Source: a phage. From it: a DNA stretch of 64,000 nt. Location: NCBI GenBank assembly GCA_012401045.1, contig GCA_012401045.1_4704.1; one strand, written 5' to 3'. A program made the position numbers and the translations under genes. Position 1 is the first letter of the stretch, and every line of letters begins with the position of its first letter. A model generated the notes under the pieces. That model had not been told where the DNA came from. It ran no database searches and saw only the letters and a program-made list of their open reading frames with translations. Below are positions 1,600-10,916 of the stretch, piece by piece.

Positions 1600-2397
1600 T
1601 TAACGTGTTCTCCTATCACGATGCGTATACGACTGAAGACCGATGTCCATATGCGGTAACGTCAGCGTCTGCCAGATCTGTCGTGCGTAACGATCGAGCG
1701 TATGATCATCAGTAACACAATCGACGGGTTCGATGAGGTGAGTCGTATACTGGCTTTTCTCAGAGAAAGGTTCGATGTTAGCTGTATCGCCTAATCCGCT
1801 TTTCACCGTGAAGACAAGACGTGTGACGATCATCGCCTTATGCTGCTGTTCATTATAACGAAGGCTGCGGTATACGGCATAGCTTCCTCCTTTTAGGCTT
1901 CGGGTATAACGAAGGTCGGAGGTCGTCTCGGAAATCTGATACAGCATCCAGTCCAACGTATCACGCCAGTACGCATCATCCACATCAGGAACCGTAATAC
2001 CGTACCGCGTAGGCAGCAATTCTAAAAGCAATTTATAAAGTCCGCGACGTAAGCCATGCTCTTCTGTTTCCGATAAACCGTTTCCAACATAACGTGAAAT
2101 ACGCGTACGTAAATACGTACGGATGAACATATTCGCCATCAGTGTTTTCACTCTGCTACTGGTATCCTCAAAGCGATCAACGCTGAAACTCGTTTCAATC
2201 AGCCGTCCATTAAAATACAATGCAGCAACATACATCGCGTTATTACTATCACGTTCAATGTTTAAACGACCGCAGATATTAGCCGCATCGTTCATGGTAA
2301 ATTCTAATTTATCGTGTTCGATACGATAGATAATATCCTCTTGGGTTGCCAGGCTCGCAATGCGACGGTAGCCCGGAGAAGTACGTTTTACACTCAT
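1600..2397 (-). CDS. hypothetical protein (265 aa)
   Basis: The ORF track starts at 2436, but that ATG lies in the flank of a terminator hairpin. The ATG at 2397 (MSVKRTSPG...) has a GAGGA RBS 5 nt upstream. Confidence 0.6.
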   Translation of the reverse strand: MSVKRTSPGYRRIASLATQEDIIYRIEHDKLEFTMNDAANICGRLNIERDSNNAMYVAALYFNGRLIETSFSVDRFEDTSSRVKTLMANMFIRTYLRTRISRYVGNGLSETEEHGLRRGLYKLLLELLPTRYGITVPDVDDAYWRDTLDWMLYQISETTSDLRYTRSLKGGSYAVYRSLRYNEQQHKAMIVTRLVFTVKSGLGDTANIEPFSEKSQYTTHLIEPVDCVTDDHTLDRYARQIWQTLTLPHMDIGLQSYTHRDRRTR

Positions 2398-3133: not shown

Positions 3134-3358
3134 TTAGCAATGGTTGTTAGTTGCTTCTATTTCATCAAGATACGGTTCTACGTCATCGCCCTCCACGAAT
3201 TCGTTGAACCAACAGTCAATGGTAGAAATAACCGGCGACTGGTGTTCACATTTCTTAGATACCTTAAAAGGTACGTTATTATCCATCATACCGAGTTCGG
3301 GTCGAAAACGCCCGAAATGTTTCGCAGTCCAAATGTCTGGGACGATATGGTTGTTCAT
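3134..3358 (-). CDS. non-virion RNA polymerase beta-prime N fragment, exon 3 (74 aa)
   Basis: Begins MNNHIVPD..LGMMDNNVPF. This matches the universal beta-prime segment after the catalytic motif (DGD-x-M-N/A-x-H-x-P ... LMMSTNNILSP in E. coli). It is in frame with exon 2 when joined at 3358. Confidence 0.75.
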   Translation of the reverse strand: MNNHIVPDIWTAKHFGRFRPELGMMDNNVPFKVSKKCEHQSPVISTIDCWFNEFVEGDDVEPYLDEIEATNNHC

Positions 3359-3713
3359 CGTAGTGTTCAGCATGAGTCGCTACCTCATACCCGCAGCTTT
3401 ACCTGCAGCTTCCGGTGTTACCGGAATGTCCAGAATATATCTTATCCATATTCCAAATGGAACGTAGGACTTCCGCGCTGGATCTCGCTTGAGACCACGT
3501 ATTCGTTGAACGTTCTCCTGAACGGAGCTTCGCTGCTGATCGAACATTGTCACGTACGGTAGGCATCCCCGAAGGGATTGTCATTGAAGCCGCGTACATC
3601 CGCTACCTTGTTTCTACCTTATCGGTTCCTCTTACGAGGCGTAGCAGCCTTAGCCCTTCCCAGCAATTCACGGAATCCAAGCTCTTCCTTTCGGAAGGCA
3701 GGGCCTATGATTA
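3359..3713 (-). ncRNA. group I self-splicing intron 2 (ORF-less, 355 nt)
   Basis: Read on the minus strand: P AAUUGCUGGGAAGG (3668..3655), Q GAUCAGCAGC (3541..3532), R GUUCAACGAAUACG (3511..3498), S AAGAUAUAUUC (3443..3433). P7 is GAAUA/UAUUC and P4 is GCUG/CAGC. There is a GAAA-capped P2 and P9-type hairpins (e.g. UUCCGG-UAACA-CCGGAA, 3426..3410). The last nucleotide is G (3359). The boundaries rest mainly on reading frame and motif restoration. Confidence 0.75.
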
Positions 3714-3726
3714 AGCGTCACCGTCG
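3714..3726 (-). CDS. non-virion RNA polymerase beta-prime N fragment, 13-nt micro-exon 2 (completes Phe, encodes Asp-Gly-Asp-Ala)
   Basis: Minus-strand CGACGGUGACGCU. It is the only GAY-GGN-GAY between exon 1 and exon 3. It is complementary to the intron-1 guide sequence CCGUCG (P10). Confidence 0.75.
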
Positions 3727-4103
3727 CTGTTTATCGACTATATCTTCATCCTCGTTGCGAGGAGTCTCCCGTTTTGGTCTGTGTTTAACAGAGCCTACTC
3801 TACTCGACATCGCGTCTTTCGATAGTCTGTGAGCACACATCTTAACAAACATTCGTGGATTCCTAAACAGGTGAATGTTCTTGTTGAGATGCTTCGCTGC
3901 GGATTATTCCCGTCCTACCTCTTTTACCGTACCCAGTTCATTACGCTGGCCCTCATCTATGTCACCACGATGAGTTGGTGTGTAGTCCGATTACAGAAAC
4001 TTCCCGTCAATTAGAGAGCTTTAACTACGTTCCTGTTACCAGAAACCCGACTCCGACGGCATCAATAAATCAACATAAGTTATTGATTTAATTGAAAAAA
4101 CTG
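3727..4103 (-). ncRNA. group I self-splicing intron 1 (ORF-less, 377 nt)
   Basis: Read on the minus strand: P AAUUGACGGGAAG (4012..4000), Q AAUCCGCAGC (3905..3896), R GCUCACAGACUAUCG (3834..3820), S AAGAUAUAGUC (3746..3736). P7 is GACUAU/AUAGUC. The internal guide CCGUCG-GAGUCGG (4059..4047) pairs with the 5' exon end CCGACUU (U.G at the splice site) and with the 3' exon start CGACGG. The intron ends in G (3727). Confidence 0.88.
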
Positions 4104-5359
4104 AAGTCGGCATTATAACCTTTGAGGATCATCACGCTTAACCCGATGGTGTTATCCTGCGGATCGCGTTTAACCTTGGTGATTTCAAGACATTGGTTAC
4201 TGCTTCGGTCAAGTGATGGGTTTCGAACAAAGCCGCACACAATCCCATCGAACGGTGTATCAGCAATAAGCTCATCGTGCAGCTCGCTCATCATCGGATG
4301 ATAATTACGGACATGTTCCGCAACGAACGCACGCGCTGCTCTCGGTGAATAACCACGATGGAATAACTTGGATTGGATATGTTCTTTATTGGTTAAAGTA
4401 AATGGTGCGTATGGGAAATGCAGATGATAATAACGATGGTTCGCTGTTATCGAACTGATTACGGTACGCGTGGTGAATGGATGTAATGTACCTAATATGT
4501 TTTTACGTGTAATACCTTTCTTCTTACCGATGAACTCATCGAAAATCGCCGCGTGGTATTGCAGTAGCTTCAATTGCACTTTCGCCATCCAGTTTTCTTT
4601 CTTTCTGGCGCTCAAAGGTGTTGTTGGATGATAGATACTGTTCAACGTACCGATAGCATCGATCGCACCTTCCATTTTGCTATCCGCATAACGACCGGTT
4701 GGCGTATTCTCGATAACGAACATCATGGCCGCAGGAAAGCTGATATACTGACTGAAGAACTTATCACGATGGATACGGATGAATTCTCGTAGCGTGTCAA
4801 CTTTCTCCGTGTTCTTCGGTCCACGTAACGTCGGTCCTTTATACAAGATCTCCATGATGCGATCGAAGTTCTGTATAAAACTATTTACACCGCGACGTAT
4901 CCCGAATACATCGAATTGCTGCTCCAGATAGTTCTTGAGTTCGATGGGTCGTTTTACATTTGGACGGTAACTGGCATCAATGAGCCACGTCATCGTTTCA
5001 AAGCTTTTGATATTCAACTCGCTTGCCAGCACGAGATGGACCAACGGGTTAATGAACGCATCGATTCCTTCAGGAACACGCGCCCAAACCGTCGAACGAA
5101 TCTCCTGTTCTGCCGGGTAGGTCACAACCGTTTTACAGTTTGGACACACCGTGCCGAGTAGCTCACCACGATTGTAGAAACCACAACCACACTGTGGTGT
5201 GATATCCAGCGTATCGCTGGAGTAAACACGGGTGATAAAACTGTTTAATTTCTTCTTCTCTTCGACGACTTTTGTATCGTAATCATTCAACAAAATCGGC
5301 GTAAAAGGAAGTTCTGCGAGCTGTCTATCGAAACTCACGATATCGAGCATGATGGCCAT
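4104..5359 (-). CDS. non-virion RNA polymerase beta-prime N fragment, exon 1 (phiKZ gp55-like)
   Basis: Zn-ribbon CGCGFYNRGELLGTVCPNCKTVV resembles E. coli beta-prime [23 protein letters not shown]. The uninterrupted ORF ends ...KGYNADF-SFFN*, stopping in the middle of NADFDGD. It sits directly downstream of chimallin, as in phiKZ gp54-gp55. Confidence 0.85.
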
Positions 5360-5451: not shown

Positions 5452-7347
5452 TTAGAACAGATTGAATGCCCCACCCATGTTGTTAACGCCAACATTCGGA
5501 CGATCGCTACGTGCGTAGATGTTACCGGAGATGTTACCCAGACCACGAGCACGTGCTGCCATGTTACCACGAACAGCGGTACCTGCCAGATGCTGGATGT
5601 TCTCAGGACGGATGGTGAAGCCAGCATCAGCAGCGGCTTCGATCAGCGCCTGCAGTGCTAACGGATCGAAGTCGTAACGCATTGCCCAGCCGGTTTGTTC
5701 CCAGCTACCAGACAGAACACGATCGATGATTTCGTGACGAGCGACAACACGCTGAGACATCGTCATATCGGTACGGTCGAAGCTGTCTTCCCAAGCTTCT
5801 ACGGTATCCGGGTTAGTGATGTTCATCATGTACAGATCGTCCATATCACGAATATCGTGACGGTGACCATCCTGGTGGTTGTAGTGACCCAGCGGGATAC
5901 GGTTACCGGTAGCGTAGACCAGCGGTTGGCCGTATTGATATTTCTTGCTGAAGCAACCCAGGGTAACATCATCGAACGCACGGAAGAGGGCTTTGTAACC
6001 TTCGGAGATTTCACGGACTTCACCTTCAACTTTGCCCGTATAGATCTTCTCAGCCGCCGGGATCATACGCAGCAGCCAGCTGTACTCACCTTCTTCCGGT
6101 ACGTCGATAGAAATCAGCAGAGACGGATACAGTACCTGTTGCAGGAACTTGTAAATCTGCTCGTTGGTTTGAGTAGACAGATCCAGCGGTGCGGTAACTT
6201 CCGGATCCAGTACCATCGCCAGAGCACCCGGGTTATGCGGACCAATACCACGGGCAGCGTTGCTGATTAAAGACTGTGCCCACGCCATACCGCTGTTCAG
6301 CGTAGCGATGGTGCCAATCAGACCCAACACGAAAGTGTTCGGTGTGAACGCATCCAGCTCCAGCGGGTAAGCGCTGGTCATCACGTAACGCGGCTGGTAT
6401 TGTACAGTCGGCGGTACCGGATAACCGTTAACCAGAACAGGGCCTTGGTTGAAGGTCGGGTTCTGCGGGCTGTAAGTCAGGTCAATGTAACCGGTGGTGG
6501 CGACCAGACGCTGTTGACTATCGTAATCGCTCATCGCTTGACGGATGCGGTTAGAGATAGTTACAGTGATGTCAGAACGCACAGGGTTACCAACAATATC
6601 GCTGTCCTGCATACCGCTGGTGTTGTACTGAACGCTGCTGATTGGCTGATCGCTTGCCATCATGCCCAGGTTGAACTGCGGCAGACCCAGTTTATCACCG
6701 AGACGGATTTCGATCGCGGTTTGGATTGCGTTATCTGCAGCAGACAGCAGGGTGGTTGCCAGATGCGCAGATTCAGCGGTGATTTCATTGGTCACCACAG
6801 CCAGACCAGCGATACGAACAGTACCGTTAGACTTACCGCCAATAGCTGAGTACATTGCCGCCATGACTTCGTTGATGAACGTACCGTTCAGGTTATCAAC
6901 CCAGGTACGCGGTACCAGAATGTTACCATGCGGACCTTGTTCTTCACGACGCGGCAGCGGAGCCAGACCAGCAACCAGCGGAAGCACATAACCAAAGAAG
7001 TGGTTATGGTCACCAACTTTTGCACCACTCATAACGACCAGGGTCGGATACGGTACGCTGTACTGGTTCGGGTCAACCGCAACAAAGATGAAGTCGTTTT
7101 TGAACTGGGTATCTTCCAGATATTTCTCCATCAGACGACGGAGATTCAGTACCTGCTCGGAGCCAGTATTACGGCTAATACGACGGCTCAGTGTACGGTT
7201 GATCGTACGCATCGTATGAGTTACTTTAGGCTGGCCAGCAAAATCTGCAGCGGTTTCCAGCGCCTCATCAGCACGTTGTGCGGTGCGGGTTTCAGCTGCA
7301 CGAATTTCTACATTATCGTTACCGTTATTACGTACGTCTAAGCCCAT
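5452..7347 (-). CDS. chmA: chimallin, phage nucleus shell protein (631 aa)
   Basis: Size about 70 kDa, strongly biased (highly expressed) codon usage, own early-type promoter motif and terminator. It lies immediately upstream of the nvRNAP beta-prime gene, as phiKZ gp54 does. PhuZ and split RNAPs occur in the same window. Not verified by alignment. Confidence 0.72.
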   Translation of the reverse strand: MGLDVRNNGNDNVEIRAAETRTAQRADEALETAADFAGQPKVTHTMRTINRTLSRRISRNTGSEQVLNLRRLMEKYLEDTQFKNDFIFVAVDPNQYSVPYPTLVVMSGAKVGDHNHFFGYVLPLVAGLAPLPRREEQGPHGNILVPRTWVDNLNGTFINEVMAAMYSAIGGKSNGTVRIAGLAVVTNEITAESAHLATTLLSAADNAIQTAIEIRLGDKLGLPQFNLGMMASDQPISSVQYNTSGMQDSDIVGNPVRSDITVTISNRIRQAMSDYDSQQRLVATTGYIDLTYSPQNPTFNQGPVLVNGYPVPPTVQYQPRYVMTSAYPLELDAFTPNTFVLGLIGTIATLNSGMAWAQSLISNAARGIGPHNPGALAMVLDPEVTAPLDLSTQTNEQIYKFLQQVLYPSLLISIDVPEEGEYSWLLRMIPAAEKIYTGKVEGEVREISEGYKALFRAFDDVTLGCFSKKYQYGQPLVYATGNRIPLGHYNHQDGHRHDIRDMDDLYMMNITNPDTVEAWEDSFDRTDMTMSQRVVARHEIIDRVLSGSWEQTGWAMRYDFDPLALQALIEAAADAGFTIRPENIQHLAGTAVRGNMAARARGLGNISGNIYARSDRPNVGVNNMGGAFNLF

Positions 7348-8762: not shown

Positions 8763-10916
8763 TTACTCTGCGGTTTCTTGCTTCGGTAAATAACTTGCTG
8801 CGATGTCTTGGGCTAACAATGTATTGTTTTTATTCGAGATGAAAATACCATAACTTTCCATTAACGCGTAATACGAACGCACGAGCGTAGAGATCAATCG
8901 ACGAATATCCATACCTTGAATAAAGATATCAGGAAGCCCGGAGGCTTCGATCACCGGTAATGGTATCGTTAAGTTGCTTATCGTTTTCTTATCGTTACGT
9001 ACAATCCAATCACGGAAACGTTGTTGTAACCCTTTATCCTCCCAGGAATCAATCCAATCGTTAAGAAGCGTTTTGTTCTTCGTCGCCAACGGCACACGAA
9101 CCCCAACATAGGGTGGTTCAGGGCAATGGCCGTACGATTGAGCAAACACCTCTTCCCACATATCGTAAGACTGTTTCGTTACTGCAACATGCGGTTTCAC
9201 TTTAACACGCGTTAAGAAATCAGGATCACCACGTTTCATAGACTCAACGATTTCGTTTTCTAACGAGATAATATCGTCAAGAACCAATCGAATGCTGATC
9301 TTCTCGTTACGTAACAGCTTATCCATGATACCACACATCATGCGTTCAACACGTTTGACGATCATTTTTGGTGCTGACGCATCACGCATAACCGGACCTT
9401 TCAATTCCAGCTTCGGTGGATTGATAGGAACCCCCTCACGCATGGTCATGTAACCGTAATAGTTTTTACCCATCGAGGTTAACGACAGAATCAAGAACAT
9501 ATATTCGTTCTTCATTTCCATCACGTACATATGCTCTTTCGCCACACCGATATTACCAGAACACATCGCCATCAGATGAACCGTAATCTGCGTAACCAGA
9601 TAGATAAGCGTGTTTGCTAAGCGCGTCGAAACTGGATTGATCTCCATATTTCCAAATCGCCACTGAACCCACTCCTGGCAGGTAAACACCGTCGAGTCGG
9701 TATCAGACAACACACCCACTTCACGGATTGCTGATGGGAAAGCATAAACACCAGCCGGTTGGTTCTCGGTACGCCAGAACGCCATAATCAAATCAGCATA
9801 GCTTTGAATACGCTGTAGCATTAATTTTGTCGTTGCTGCAGTAAGACGATAACCAAGCTCATTTCCTTTTTCTAGCGCTACGTAAATCGCTTCCCCATTC
9901 AAGAACTCCGTACATTGTGCTGTAATCCAAGCGACCGTGTTGTTATCCATGGAAGCAATAATGGCTTTAGCCTCTTCCATCGTTTCAACAGGTTCGGATG
10001 CCAGCTCGCATAACGAATCAAGAAAATCTCGAACAAATTCAGGATTAAGCTCACGTAACGAGTACAGGTTATTGCTGTACATGTAGCAGGCACGTTCCAA
10101 CGGTGTTAAACCAGTAATTAACTCCCGGATAGTCAGTTCTTTCTCTGGGTCGAAAGTATATCGATGCAAGCATTTCGATACGTTAGCCCAAACCTCTTCC
10201 GGCGTAGGGTAATGTAGTTTGTATTTTACCATTACCTGTTCAATGGCTTTACGATCGCTGTTGCGGACAATACTCACGATGTTTTCAATTGCGATATCAC
10301 AATCGTAATAATGGAAATTGCCCGCAAGGAAGCGTTCGTTGTTCGCATTGGCTGAACCTGAAGCACAGCGACACGTTGTCGTTAAACTTGGATGCGCAAT
10401 TGGATTATAAAAAGGGTTAAACTTGGACGCCTGGGTTCCTGACAAACTGTTGTTATCTAACTTGGTGTTGGTTTGTCGTTTATCGTGTAACTCAGCTTCA
10501 TCTTTACGTCCGTGTGCTTGCGCTATCGACATTTGTTTCTTTTGTTTCTTACGCAACTTACCGTTTTCAACCGCAAAGTCGCTTAGCACACTGGAACGTG
10601 TTTCACGTGGATAACAGTTAGCCCACACCGGCGTGATAATTAAATTATTTTCTTTAATATCATTGAAGTATTGGCTGAACTTGATGACTTCTTTTTCTCG
10701 ATTTCCTTCGGTGCGCTGTGTTAATACAAGGCAGTCGGGATCAACCATCCCGTATTTTCCACCAGGACGAACCGTATCAAGGACAAACTGCAACGCTTCC
10801 TGCTGTGATATCCCACGCATGCGCATTAAGAACAGGGTATAATCCTGTACCGCTTCTTTGGTCATATCCAACGTACGGCCATATCCGTTTTCATCGTAAA
10901 AGAACGGATTTTCCAT
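8763..10916 (-). CDS. DNA polymerase, family-B-like polymerase domain protein (717 aa)
   Basis: KLDNNSLSGTQAS..F resembles motif B (Kx3NSxYG). SLTTTCRCA resembles the TxxGR segment. VLSDTDSTVF resembles motif C (DTDS). No clear exonuclease motifs, so the exonuclease part is probably a separate gene. Confidence 0.5.
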   Translation of the reverse strand: MENPFFYDENGYGRTLDMTKEAVQDYTLFLMRMRGISQQEALQFVLDTVRPGGKYGMVDPDCLVLTQRTEGNREKEVIKFSQYFNDIKENNLIITPVWANCYPRETRSSVLSDFAVENGKLRKKQKKQMSIAQAHGRKDEAELHDKRQTNTKLDNNSLSGTQASKFNPFYNPIAHPSLTTTCRCASGSANANNERFLAGNFHYYDCDIAIENIVSIVRNSDRKAIEQVMVKYKLHYPTPEEVWANVSKCLHRYTFDPEKELTIRELITGLTPLERACYMYSNNLYSLRELNPEFVRDFLDSLCELASEPVETMEEAKAIIASMDNNTVAWITAQCTEFLNGEAIYVALEKGNELGYRLTAATTKLMLQRIQSYADLIMAFWRTENQPAGVYAFPSAIREVGVLSDTDSTVFTCQEWVQWRFGNMEINPVSTRLANTLIYLVTQITVHLMAMCSGNIGVAKEHMYVMEMKNEYMFLILSLTSMGKNYYGYMTMREGVPINPPKLELKGPVMRDASAPKMIVKRVERMMCGIMDKLLRNEKISIRLVLDDIISLENEIVESMKRGDPDFLTRVKVKPHVAVTKQSYDMWEEVFAQSYGHCPEPPYVGVRVPLATKNKTLLNDWIDSWEDKGLQQRFRDWIVRNDKKTISNLTIPLPVIEASGLPDIFIQGMDIRRLISTLVRSYYALMESYGIFISNKNNTLLAQDIAASYLPKQETAE

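Follow-up and report, generated by a model that had tools for sequence, protein, structure and literature searches.

A probable second group I intron behind a 13-nt micro-exon in the non-virion RNA polymerase beta'-N gene of a Goslar-like phage

Group I introns in RNA polymerase (RNAP) genes of chimalliviruses are known from PhiPA3, in which the gp210 intron lies in the virion RNAP beta gene and encodes an active nicking HNH endonuclease that mediates interference competition (Birkholz et al. 2024, PMC11620839). A self-splicing intron of PhiPA3 gp65-66 is also described in the literature, and endonuclease-based competition in co-infection has been described for PhiPA3 and phiKZ. Phage genes with several introns include the DNA polymerase and terminase genes of Bastillevirinae (PMC11878797), and micro-exons flanked by group I introns occur in mitochondrial cox1, such as the placozoan 1-bp (base pair) exon (PMC5436844), and in fungal mitogenomes. 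Here we analyze a stretch of 64,000 nucleotides (nt), called the window, from contig GCA_012401045.1_4704.1 of NCBI GenBank assembly GCA_012401045.1, and within it the segment 3713..3359 on the minus strand. This segment, intron 2, is very probably a group I intron that carries no endonuclease gene and follows another group I intron in the gene of the non-virion RNAP beta'-N subunit. The phage is 98% identical to the nucleus-forming chimallivirus Escherichia phage vB_EcoM_Goslar, a giant E. coli phage. In the literature searched, neither a second intron of Goslar gp188 nor a group I intron at the motif NADFDGD is described, and no phage exon of 13 nt or fewer flanked by group I introns and no micro-exon for a catalytic triad is reported, which is not proof of novelty.

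Coding sequence and intron boundaries

The interrupted gene is a homolog of phiKZ gp55, 201phi2-1 gp107, and PhiPA3 gp054, the non-virion RNAP beta'-N subunit, and the window copy is 98% identical to Goslar gp188, which is named 'RNA polymerase beta subunit' in the Goslar records. Its parts are as follows (^ marks a splice junction or insertion site).

4104..5359, minus strand: exon 1, placed by the list of open reading frames (ORFs), identity to Goslar, and homologs; ends ...GGT TAT AAT GCC GAC TT (G Y N A D F-)
4103..3727, minus strand: intron 1, group I, 377 nt, RF00028 score 49.3 bits (E 3.6e-11); ends at G3727
4059..4048, minus strand: guide of intron 1, CCGUCG followed by GAGUCG, read from the sequence
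3726..3714, minus strand: micro-exon CGACGGTGACGCT (CGACGGUGACGCU), 13 nt, placed by the spliced ORF and intron-less homologs
3713..3359, minus strand: intron 2, group I, 355 nt, placed by RF00028, covariation, empty sites, and nhmmer
3358..3134, minus strand: exon 3, which starts ATG AAC AAC CAT and runs to the stop

The exon 1 ORF continues five codons into intron 1 and then meets TAA, and intron 2 has an in-frame UAA at its 5' start and G3359 as its last base. Removal of both introns in silico yields an in-frame ORF of 497 amino acids (aa) that reads GYNADFDGDAMNNHIVPD (wider stretch ...ILKGYNADFDGDAMNNHIVPD...). The predicted spliced RNA is ...AATGCCGACTT^CGACGGTGACGCT^ATGAACAACCAT..., with GACGCU^AUGAAC at the junction of intron 2, and the tryptic peptide predicted for the doubly spliced product is GYNADFDGDAMNNHIVPDIWTAK. 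The micro-exon codes for the last base of a Phe codon and for Asp-Gly-Asp-Ala and completes the catalytic NADFDGD motif, at which intron-less homologs read YNADFDGDAMN. The alignment is gapless over both junctions with the intron-less homologs P0002 (65% identical, 496 aa; GYNADFDGDAMNHH, longer stretch LILKGYNADFDGDAMNHHSAPD) and P0003 (62% identical; YNADFDGDEMNNH, longer stretch YNADFDGDEMNNHIPPD), as well as with the homologs of PhiPA3 and 201phi2-1 (NADFDGDQLN, longer stretch NADFDGDQLNLTLMPD). The doubly spliced protein matches Pfam PF00623 (RNA_pol_Rpb1_2; cut-off 25.3 bits) with 36.9 bits over residues 371-428, spanning both junctions, while the version that skips the micro-exon stays under the cut-off at 16.5 bits and the unspliced exon-1 ORF gives no PF00623 match. 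An earlier reading of the DNA from its letters (the sequence-only reading) had drawn the boundaries chiefly so as to restore DGDA^MNNHIVP; they are backed by the restored ORF, by the intron-less homologs, and by the empty-site alleles of sister phages described below. Within intron 2, four ORFs on both strands show no match to a Pfam or PHROG family, the longest on the same strand having 57 and 66 aa, and no homing endonuclease ORF, the mark of a mobile intron, was found.

Fold, guide, and family of intron 2

The Goslar-like relatives used here are contigs from IMG/VR, metagenomes, and Logan/ENA (labelled L). The fold was examined in an alignment of five sequences (window, Goslar, L009, and from L008 both the diverged ortholog 2' and the paralog A), each made up of micro-exon and intron, and in a second alignment of 12 distinct intron-2-type sequences. 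RNAalifold, unaided, returned P1 to P6 (including P6a), the branched P5 extension, P7.1, P8, P9, P9.1, and P9.2. As P7 crosses P3 and so is not predictable by RNAalifold, it was added to the structure. The elements of intron 2 are the following.

3716..3712 / 3707..3703 (span 3703..3716), minus strand: P1 hairpin GCU^UA / UAGGC, from RNAalifold and the 12-sequence alignment
3710..3703, minus strand: guide UCAUAGGC
3681..3699, minus strand: P2, a GAAA-capped hairpin (GAAA hairpin 3697..3684); four of seven pairs change on both sides and 100% of cells are paired
3675..3669 / 3477..3471, minus strand: P3, which encloses P4, P5, the P5 extension, P6/P6a, the 5' strand of P7, and P7.1
3668..3655, minus strand: P element AAUUGCUGGGAAGG
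3665..3660 / 3539..3534, minus strand: P4
3656..3653 / 3545..3542, minus strand: P5
3647..3552, minus strand: branched P5 extension, about 96 nt
3541..3532, minus strand: Q element GAUCAGCAGC
3533..3510, minus strand: P6 and P6a
3511..3498, minus strand: R element GUUCAACGAAUACG
3504..3500 / 3437..3433, minus strand: P7 pseudoknot GAAUA/UAUUC, with the additional pair A3506-U3432 and C3505 bulged
3496..3481, minus strand: P7.1, hairpin GGUCUC-AAGC-GAGAUC
3470..3444, minus strand: P8, between the two P7 strands
3443..3433, minus strand: S element AAGAUAUAUUC
3443..3438, minus strand: J8/7, AAGAUA
3426..3410, minus strand: P9, with pairs that change on both sides
3408..3391, minus strand: P9.1
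3390..3370, minus strand: P9.2, with pairs that change on both sides; the 3' tail CUGAACACUACG is next

In the five-sequence alignment, 98.3% of the cells of the 105-pair structure are standard pairs, and 32 of the 105 pairs change on both sides, compared with 8.0±2.2 in 500 shuffles, none of which attained 32, and with 1-2 in slid controls, in which the partners were moved by 1-3 columns. The 12-sequence alignment is 96.4% paired and has 105 double-change cells against 34±4; part of the P5 extension is less well paired there, at a place where the A-type rows are shifted by one column. P7 occurs in three lineages as GAAUA/UAUUC, GAGUA/UACUC, and GAUCA/UGAUC, each fully paired, and this covarying pseudoknot replaced the small helices that RNAalifold had placed in alignment columns 228-237 and 295-305. 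P3, P4, and P9.1 show no changes on both sides, so that no covariation evidence comes from these helices. The minimum free energy (MFE) of the single sequence is -125.3 kcal/mol (z = -2.7). A helix between exon GGUG and 3' tail CACU in the MFE and RNAalifold structures was rejected, as it is not conserved.

The fold contains both the P4-P6 and the P3-P7-P8 domains, with P3 and P7 crossing, as expected of a group I core. J3/4 (AAU), the R element GUUCAACGAAUA, and J8/7 together with the 3' strand of P7 (AAGAUAUAUUC) all match consensus columns of RF00028. In established group I anatomy, the guanosine pocket lies in P7, and the guanosine-binding site of intron 2 would be the pair G3504-C3433 next to the bulged C3505. 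The sequence-only reading had called a second complete group I core here, 13 nt after intron 1, and this call is backed by the covariation and by homology to validated introns; every motif coordinate that it gave (P, Q, R, S, guide, GAAA hairpin, extra hairpin, and three 3' hairpins) proved exact on re-reading, and its P7 was found. P8 (CCUAC...UAUGG) resembles the 11-nt GAAA-tetraloop receptor (CCUAAG...UAUGG), and P2 has a GAAA cap in each of the 12 sequences; this loop is retained in paralog A, in which, however, P8 is plain and UUCG-capped. A tertiary contact between L2 and P8 is a possible candidate in intron 2, judged from these motifs.

The pairing between exon and guide is short. P1 has five base pairs, three with the exon (GCU/GGC) and two within the intron, and U3714·G3705 marks the 5' splice site. 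Among the 12 sequences the intron pairs of P1 covary, pair 14/21 being U-A in 11 and A-U in one, and pair 15/20 being A-U in seven and C-G in four; the exon part of P1 is exactly 3 bp, and exon position -4 is C or U without a partner. For P10, UCAU (3710..3707) can pair with AUGA of exon 3 (3358..3355) over 4 bp, and the corresponding helix has 3 bp in the L008 ortholog and is absent in paralog A. The guide UCAU-A-GGC of the sequence-only reading stands as to its shortness, the U·G at the splice site, and P10, but P1 has to be redrawn as a 5-bp hairpin that includes two intron pairs. The extension of P1 by GGUG/UGCC (UGCC at 3700..3697), which had been offered as a possibility, fails, being broken in L133-L135, where the micro-exon has GGGG, and C3697 belongs to P2. 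In intron 1, GAGUCG pairs with CGACUU of exon 1 (P1, -5.8 kcal/mol) and CCGUCG with CGACGG of the micro-exon (P10, -8.6 kcal/mol). Since P10 of intron 1 uses micro-exon bases 1-6 and P1 of intron 2 uses bases 11-13, both can form at once.

The model RF00028 aligns over its positions 1-253, end to end, to 3723..3413, and the consensus columns for P, Q, R, and S are matched. Run with nhmmer, a profile of the intron-2 type matched phage introns along its segment ~170-354, which extends from Q to the 3' end (E-values from 1.8e-14 to 1e-9), including validated introns that pass RF00028, namely those of T2P (80 bits), L050 (105 bits), and L073 (92 bits). An exact 15-mer scan of viral contigs gave many matches, some probably by chance, which were filtered with nhmmer before use. 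G3359, which precedes ATGAAC, is the terminal G (omega-G), and all 12 aligned sequences end in G; a U·G pair at the 5' splice site is present in 11 of the 12 intron-2-type sequences, the L008 ortholog having C-G. From fold, boundaries, and homology, intron 2 can be classified as a group I intron with predicted self-splicing activity. It is probably of an IA-like subgroup, because a helix is present between P7 and P3'; subgroup IA2 is characterized by two helices, P7.1 and P7.2, at this place, and intron 2 shows one hairpin (3496..3481). The Q-proximal near-identity of introns 1 and 2 pointed out by the sequence-only reading is real, but the common ancestry that it seemed to hint at was rejected: the shared CAGCGAAGC is group I family consensus, and nhmmer finds no similarity between introns 1 and 2 beyond that consensus.

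Three unrelated viral contigs found by the P3-P4 15-mer (L049 2913..4755, L044 363..1590, and L118 1970..2611) carry two to three packed group I introns that pass Rfam, and two group I matches of L049 are only ~19 nt apart. Tandem phage introns with very short exons may be commoner than documented.

Intron alleles in relatives and the annotated gene

Exon 1 protein is 99-100% identical among the Goslar-like relatives, yet their intron content differs. The comparison with related phages that the sequence-only reading had recommended found variable intron combinations and sister phages in which the segment is absent from a continuous coding sequence. The alleles, written with the introns that they contain (HEG, homing endonuclease gene), are listed below.

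{1,2}: this phage, in the window
{1+HEG,2}: Goslar
{0,1,2}: L009, L133, L134, L135, L137
{A,2'}: L008
{A}: L130-L132; intron-2 site empty, GACGGCGACGCA^ATGAAC; intron-1 site empty
{0+HEG}: L136, which reads ATAATGCTGATTTCGACGGGGACGCGATGAAC; sites 1 and 2 empty, site 2 being GACGGGGACGCG^ATGAAC
{0,1}: L139-L142, L144-L146; intron-2 site empty, CGACGGAGACGCT^ATGAAC
{1}: L143; intron-2 site empty, listed with L139-L146 as CGACGGAGACGCT^ATGAAC

The empty intron-2 sites (...GACGCT^ATGAAC...) agree with the proposed boundaries, and the remaining ambiguity of one base is settled by the rule of U at position -1 and a terminal G. As the empty-site alleles fit the boundaries, intron 2 is an optional insertion into a continuous coding sequence, and its presence/absence polymorphism shows that it has been gained or lost despite the lack of an endonuclease ORF. 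Goslar-like phages show at least eight combinations of four introns (0, A, 1, and 2), whose four sites (G^Y, NA^DF, F^D, and A^M) fall within 31 nt. Two readings were rejected: that intron 1 never occurs without intron 2, which is overturned by the alleles {1} and {0,1}, and that a 74-aa exon-3 ORF marks L008-type alleles with C before the splice site, as it marks the alleles without intron 2 instead. The tandem is not a twintron, since neither intron interrupts the other: 13 coding nt lie between them, and each is found without the other, intron 1 in L143 and L139-L146 and the intron-2 ortholog in L008.

At L009 4744..5865, and also in L133, L134, L135, and L137, three group I introns in tandem interrupt 27 nt of coding sequence, in the order AAAGGGT^, intron 0 (~365 nt), micro-exon ATAATGCAGATTT (13 nt), intron 1, the 13-nt micro-exon, and intron 2. 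In L136 (862..2238), intron 0 is alone and contains an ORF for a 323-aa I-HmuI-like HNH/NUMOD endonuclease, which sits between the 5' splice site and the guide GCCC, i.e., in the P1 loop. Genes for I-HmuI-like HNH/NUMOD endonucleases are carried by Goslar intron 1 and L136 intron 0. Near the 3' end of intron 1, Goslar has a 1065-nt cassette (L001 3171..4235) that is absent from the window (3728..3731, minus strand), with an I-HmuI-like HNH_3/NUMOD1 ORF within a 12-bp inverted repeat (ACGTGCACCGAC/GTCGGTGCACGT). Where the window has GATAA-ACAG, Goslar has GATAA-[cassette]-AG, a clean endonuclease-gene polymorphism in an otherwise 98%-identical intron.

Intron A (350 nt; L008 and L130-L132, 4752..5101) is a paralog of intron 2 inserted after GGATACAAYGCT^ (N-A^D-F). 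It is ~78% identical to intron 2 across the 5' half, with near-identical P1-P2 and P3-P4 strands, and it likewise follows an exon triplet GCU and has the guide GGC. Guide-directed transposition or recombination between neighboring sites could account for this resemblance. The P1-P2 region of intron 2 in the window is near-identical to that of paralog A and differs from that of the L008 ortholog, a pattern that suggests recombination between introns, as far as sequence comparison goes. Introns 0, A, and 2' have a common P9.1-P9.2-tail module, and P9.2 of intron 2 recurs in introns 0 and A with another tail after it. The L008 ortholog of intron 2 (5107..5125), known from one contig only, has C, possibly a sequencing error, before the 5' splice site (GATGCC^AGAGCC...), so that C-G would replace the near-universal U·G, as well as a different P1-P2 and no early in-frame stop.

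In other chimalliviruses, introns of the same gene are found in T2P (L005 1741..2222) at N^ADFDGD and in Xanthomonas phage LucasX (L006 ~1729..2153) at LKA^PNADF. With the sites of T2P (N^A) and LucasX (A^P), six sites lie within ~10 codons of the catalytic loop across chimalliviruses.

The intron-bearing gene is located between those for chimallin and a family B DNA polymerase, all on the minus strand.

7347..5452, minus strand: chimallin (PF25677)
10916..8763, minus strand: divergent family B DNA polymerase

The Goslar records in GenBank and RefSeq (MK327938 / NC_048170) annotate intron 1 alone, as 'Intron_gpI', and leave intron 2 unannotated; the gene is given as split, with a 423-aa truncated beta' fragment and a separate 79-aa hypothetical protein. 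The annotated 79-aa ORF (3373..3134, minus strand) has an artificial start that falls within P9.2 of intron 2. Goslar is a model for nucleus-forming phages, and this is one of its core genes; with the annotation corrected, gp188 and the 79-aa 'hypothetical protein' downstream of it form a single beta'-N subunit of 497 aa, and the catalytic DGD of the Goslar enzyme is encoded by the 13-nt micro-exon, which lies outside every annotated feature of the Goslar records. The exact 79-aa product (3134..3373) is recorded on 389 contigs and the 423-aa product (4088..5359) on 118. Many of these contigs, ~240 kb long, belong to NCBI assemblies whose labels name Salmonella enterica, E. coli, Shigella, and Enterobacter, so genomes of Goslar-like phages accompany the sequencing of enterobacterial isolates, either as a carrier state or as contamination.

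Splicing model, rival explanations, and known systems

The sequence comparisons establish where the insertion begins and ends, how its RNA folds, that it is homologous to group I introns, and that sister phages can do without it; the chemistry of splicing, its autonomy, and the order of the two splicing events are matters that we infer. The micro-exon GCU and the first two intron bases would pair with UAGGC (3707..3703) as P1, with U3714·G3705 at the cleavage site, and free guanosine bound at G3504-C3433 in P7, next to the bulged C3505, would attack after U3714. The terminal G3359 would then occupy the guanosine site while UCAU (3710..3707) holds AUGA of exon 3 as P10, and the exons would be ligated to GCU^AUG. 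Intron 1 would splice independently, its guide pairing over 6+6 bp with exon 1 and with micro-exon bases 1-6, and both events together would yield NADFDGDAM, the catalytic Mg-binding loop.

Several points weigh against this account, in which splicing itself is a prediction from sequence. The duplex energies of intron 2 are weak (P1 -2.8 and P10 -0.5 kcal/mol), much weaker than those of intron 1, as the sequence-only reading had noticed. In ~22 loci, intron 2 is always accompanied by an upstream neighboring intron and never alone, the neighbor being intron 1 or intron A at a distance of 13-18 nt, and the L008 ortholog has C in place of the U that precedes the splice site. The end-to-end alignment with RF00028 scores 20.9 bits (E=0.012 in a 1.4-kb search), far under the gathering score of 50 bits, and the match of intron 2 vanishes in an E-value scan of the whole 64-kb window, in which only intron 1 is found. 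At the gathering threshold the whole-window Rfam search reports nothing, not even intron 1 with its 49.3 bits, and none of the Goslar-type introns 0, A, 1, and 2 (L008, L009, L130, and L136 loci) reaches that score. Candidate causes of the low score of intron 2 are its long insertion in P5, its variant form of P7, and the shortness of P1, and the low score may be the reason why intron 1 is the one intron annotated for Goslar. A whole group of chimallivirus group I introns (0, A, and 2) goes undetected at the standard Rfam threshold, and the intron content of jumbo phages is probably under-counted.

The weak P1 and P10 and the constant presence of intron 1 or A just upstream, together with the lack of an intron ORF for a maturase acting in cis, are what one would expect if intron 2 were not autonomous and its efficient splicing needed removal of the upstream intron, the neighboring ribozyme, or a protein chaperone or maturase. 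We regard this as unlikely. A dependence on intron 1, which the sequence-only reading had raised, has gained no positive evidence, and a 3-bp exon-guide pairing need not in itself mean that intron 1 or a cofactor is required; the L008 ortholog is found beside a different intron, A, so that any dependence is not specific to intron 1, and paralog A, with identical P1 and P2, occurs alone in L130-L132. In the Azoarcus ribozyme, a 3-bp exon-guide pairing (CAU/GUG) suffices, for which the same duplex calculation gives +1.1 kcal/mol. The phages sampled are moreover few and closely related, and the co-occurrence may be mere linkage.

Two further explanations deny that the micro-exon is joined to both of its neighbors, and both are much less probable than non-autonomous splicing. 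Introns 1 and 2 could be excised with the micro-exon as one unit, by exon skipping or as a composite intron, so that exon 1 is joined to exon 3; exon skipping by neighboring group I introns has reportedly been seen in phage Twort orf142. The product, NADF-MNNH, would be without DGD and, as given above, under the Pfam cut-off, the P10 guide CCGUCG of intron 1 matches the micro-exon and not exon 3, and the introns are independent of each other in the alleles {1}, {0,1}, {1,2}, and {A,2'}, which makes this route very improbable, although exon skipping could occur as a minor by-product. Least probable of all is that the segment is retained and the gene truly split into the 423-aa fragment and the 79-aa protein with a structured RNA in between. 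This is exactly the annotation in GenBank and RefSeq, and chimallivirus polymerases are naturally split into several polypeptides. Such a polymerase would, however, be without the DGD of the catalytic NADFDGD, and in sister phages this coding sequence runs through the site without a break; in addition, the 79-aa ORF begins inside helix P9.2, and a covarying group I fold has its U·G and terminal G exactly at the points that restore the frame. Removal of intron 2 as a group I intron of its own remains very much the preferred explanation.

Intron 2 is an unannotated group I intron whose unusual arrangement consists of the 13-nt catalytic-triad micro-exon and the combinatorial intron stacking in sister phages. 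As to its meaning, we tentatively put forward, as a set of proposals that jointly are rather doubtful, that the 31 nt encoding G-Y-N-A-D-F-D-G-D-A-M in Goslar-like phages are a site of intron/endonuclease conflict. It is proposed that the ORF-less intron 2 persists and spreads by co-conversion, hitch-hiking on the I-HmuI-like nicking endonucleases of neighbors 13-18 nt off. Alternatively or additionally, its insertion might, by analogy, destroy the target of a competitor endonuclease and so give immunity in co-infection. Paralog A, with the same P1/P2 and inserted behind the same GCU triplet eight codons upstream, would record a guide-directed jump by reverse splicing, and such stacks of introns with 13-nt exons may be tolerated because transcription and translation are uncoupled in the phage nucleus. 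As an experimental system, the series of natural alleles ({0+HEG}, {A}, {1}, {0,1}, {A,2'}, {1,2}, {1+HEG,2}, and {0,1,2}) could address the folding and splicing of adjacent ribozymes across a 13-nt exon, the spread of ORF-less introns, and whether intron stacking at a polymerase active site serves phage competition.

One close system for comparison is intron 1, which is in the same gene and strand 13 nt upstream and shares with intron 2 a phage-type core, helices between P7 and P3', and an in-frame stop soon after the 5' splice site. It differs in its own 6+6-bp guide after an extra hairpin, in its Rfam score (49 bits vs 21 for intron 2), and, in Goslar, in its HNH/NUMOD endonuclease cassette, whereas intron 2 has no ORF and a branched P5 extension of ~96 nt. 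In phiKZ-like Pseudomonas phages T2P, U5, and U1B, the intron of the gp55 homolog (Rfam 80 bits) interrupts the same gene in the same catalytic-loop region, and the T2P intron has a homologous 3' half (nhmmer E 3e-14) that includes P9.2, with a tail, CUGAACAUAACG, near-identical to CUGAACACUACG of intron 2. The T2P intron is, however, inserted 6 codons upstream (N^ADFDGD), lacks the P5 extension, contains a remnant HNH ORF, and is the sole intron in its gene. The PhiPA3 gp210 intron is likewise a group I intron by the conserved catalytic aspartates of a chimallivirus RNAP subunit and polymorphic between related phages, but it lies in the gene of another subunit and encodes an endonuclease, whereas intron 2 encodes nothing.

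Beyond the chimalliviruses, Twort orf142, with three introns, and the Bastillevirinae genes resemble this locus in having two to three group I introns per phage gene, clustered at conserved sites. Mitochondrial cox1, likewise an essential enzyme gene, has adjacent group I introns at conserved sites with very short exons between them, but is organellar, with some exons trans-spliced and no comparable allele series among near-identical genomes. The Azoarcus pre-tRNA-Ile intron is like intron 2 in its 3-bp exon-guide pairing with U·G at the cleavage site, and differs as an IC3 intron of a tRNA gene that is compact (~205 nt) and held by GAAA loop-receptor clamps.

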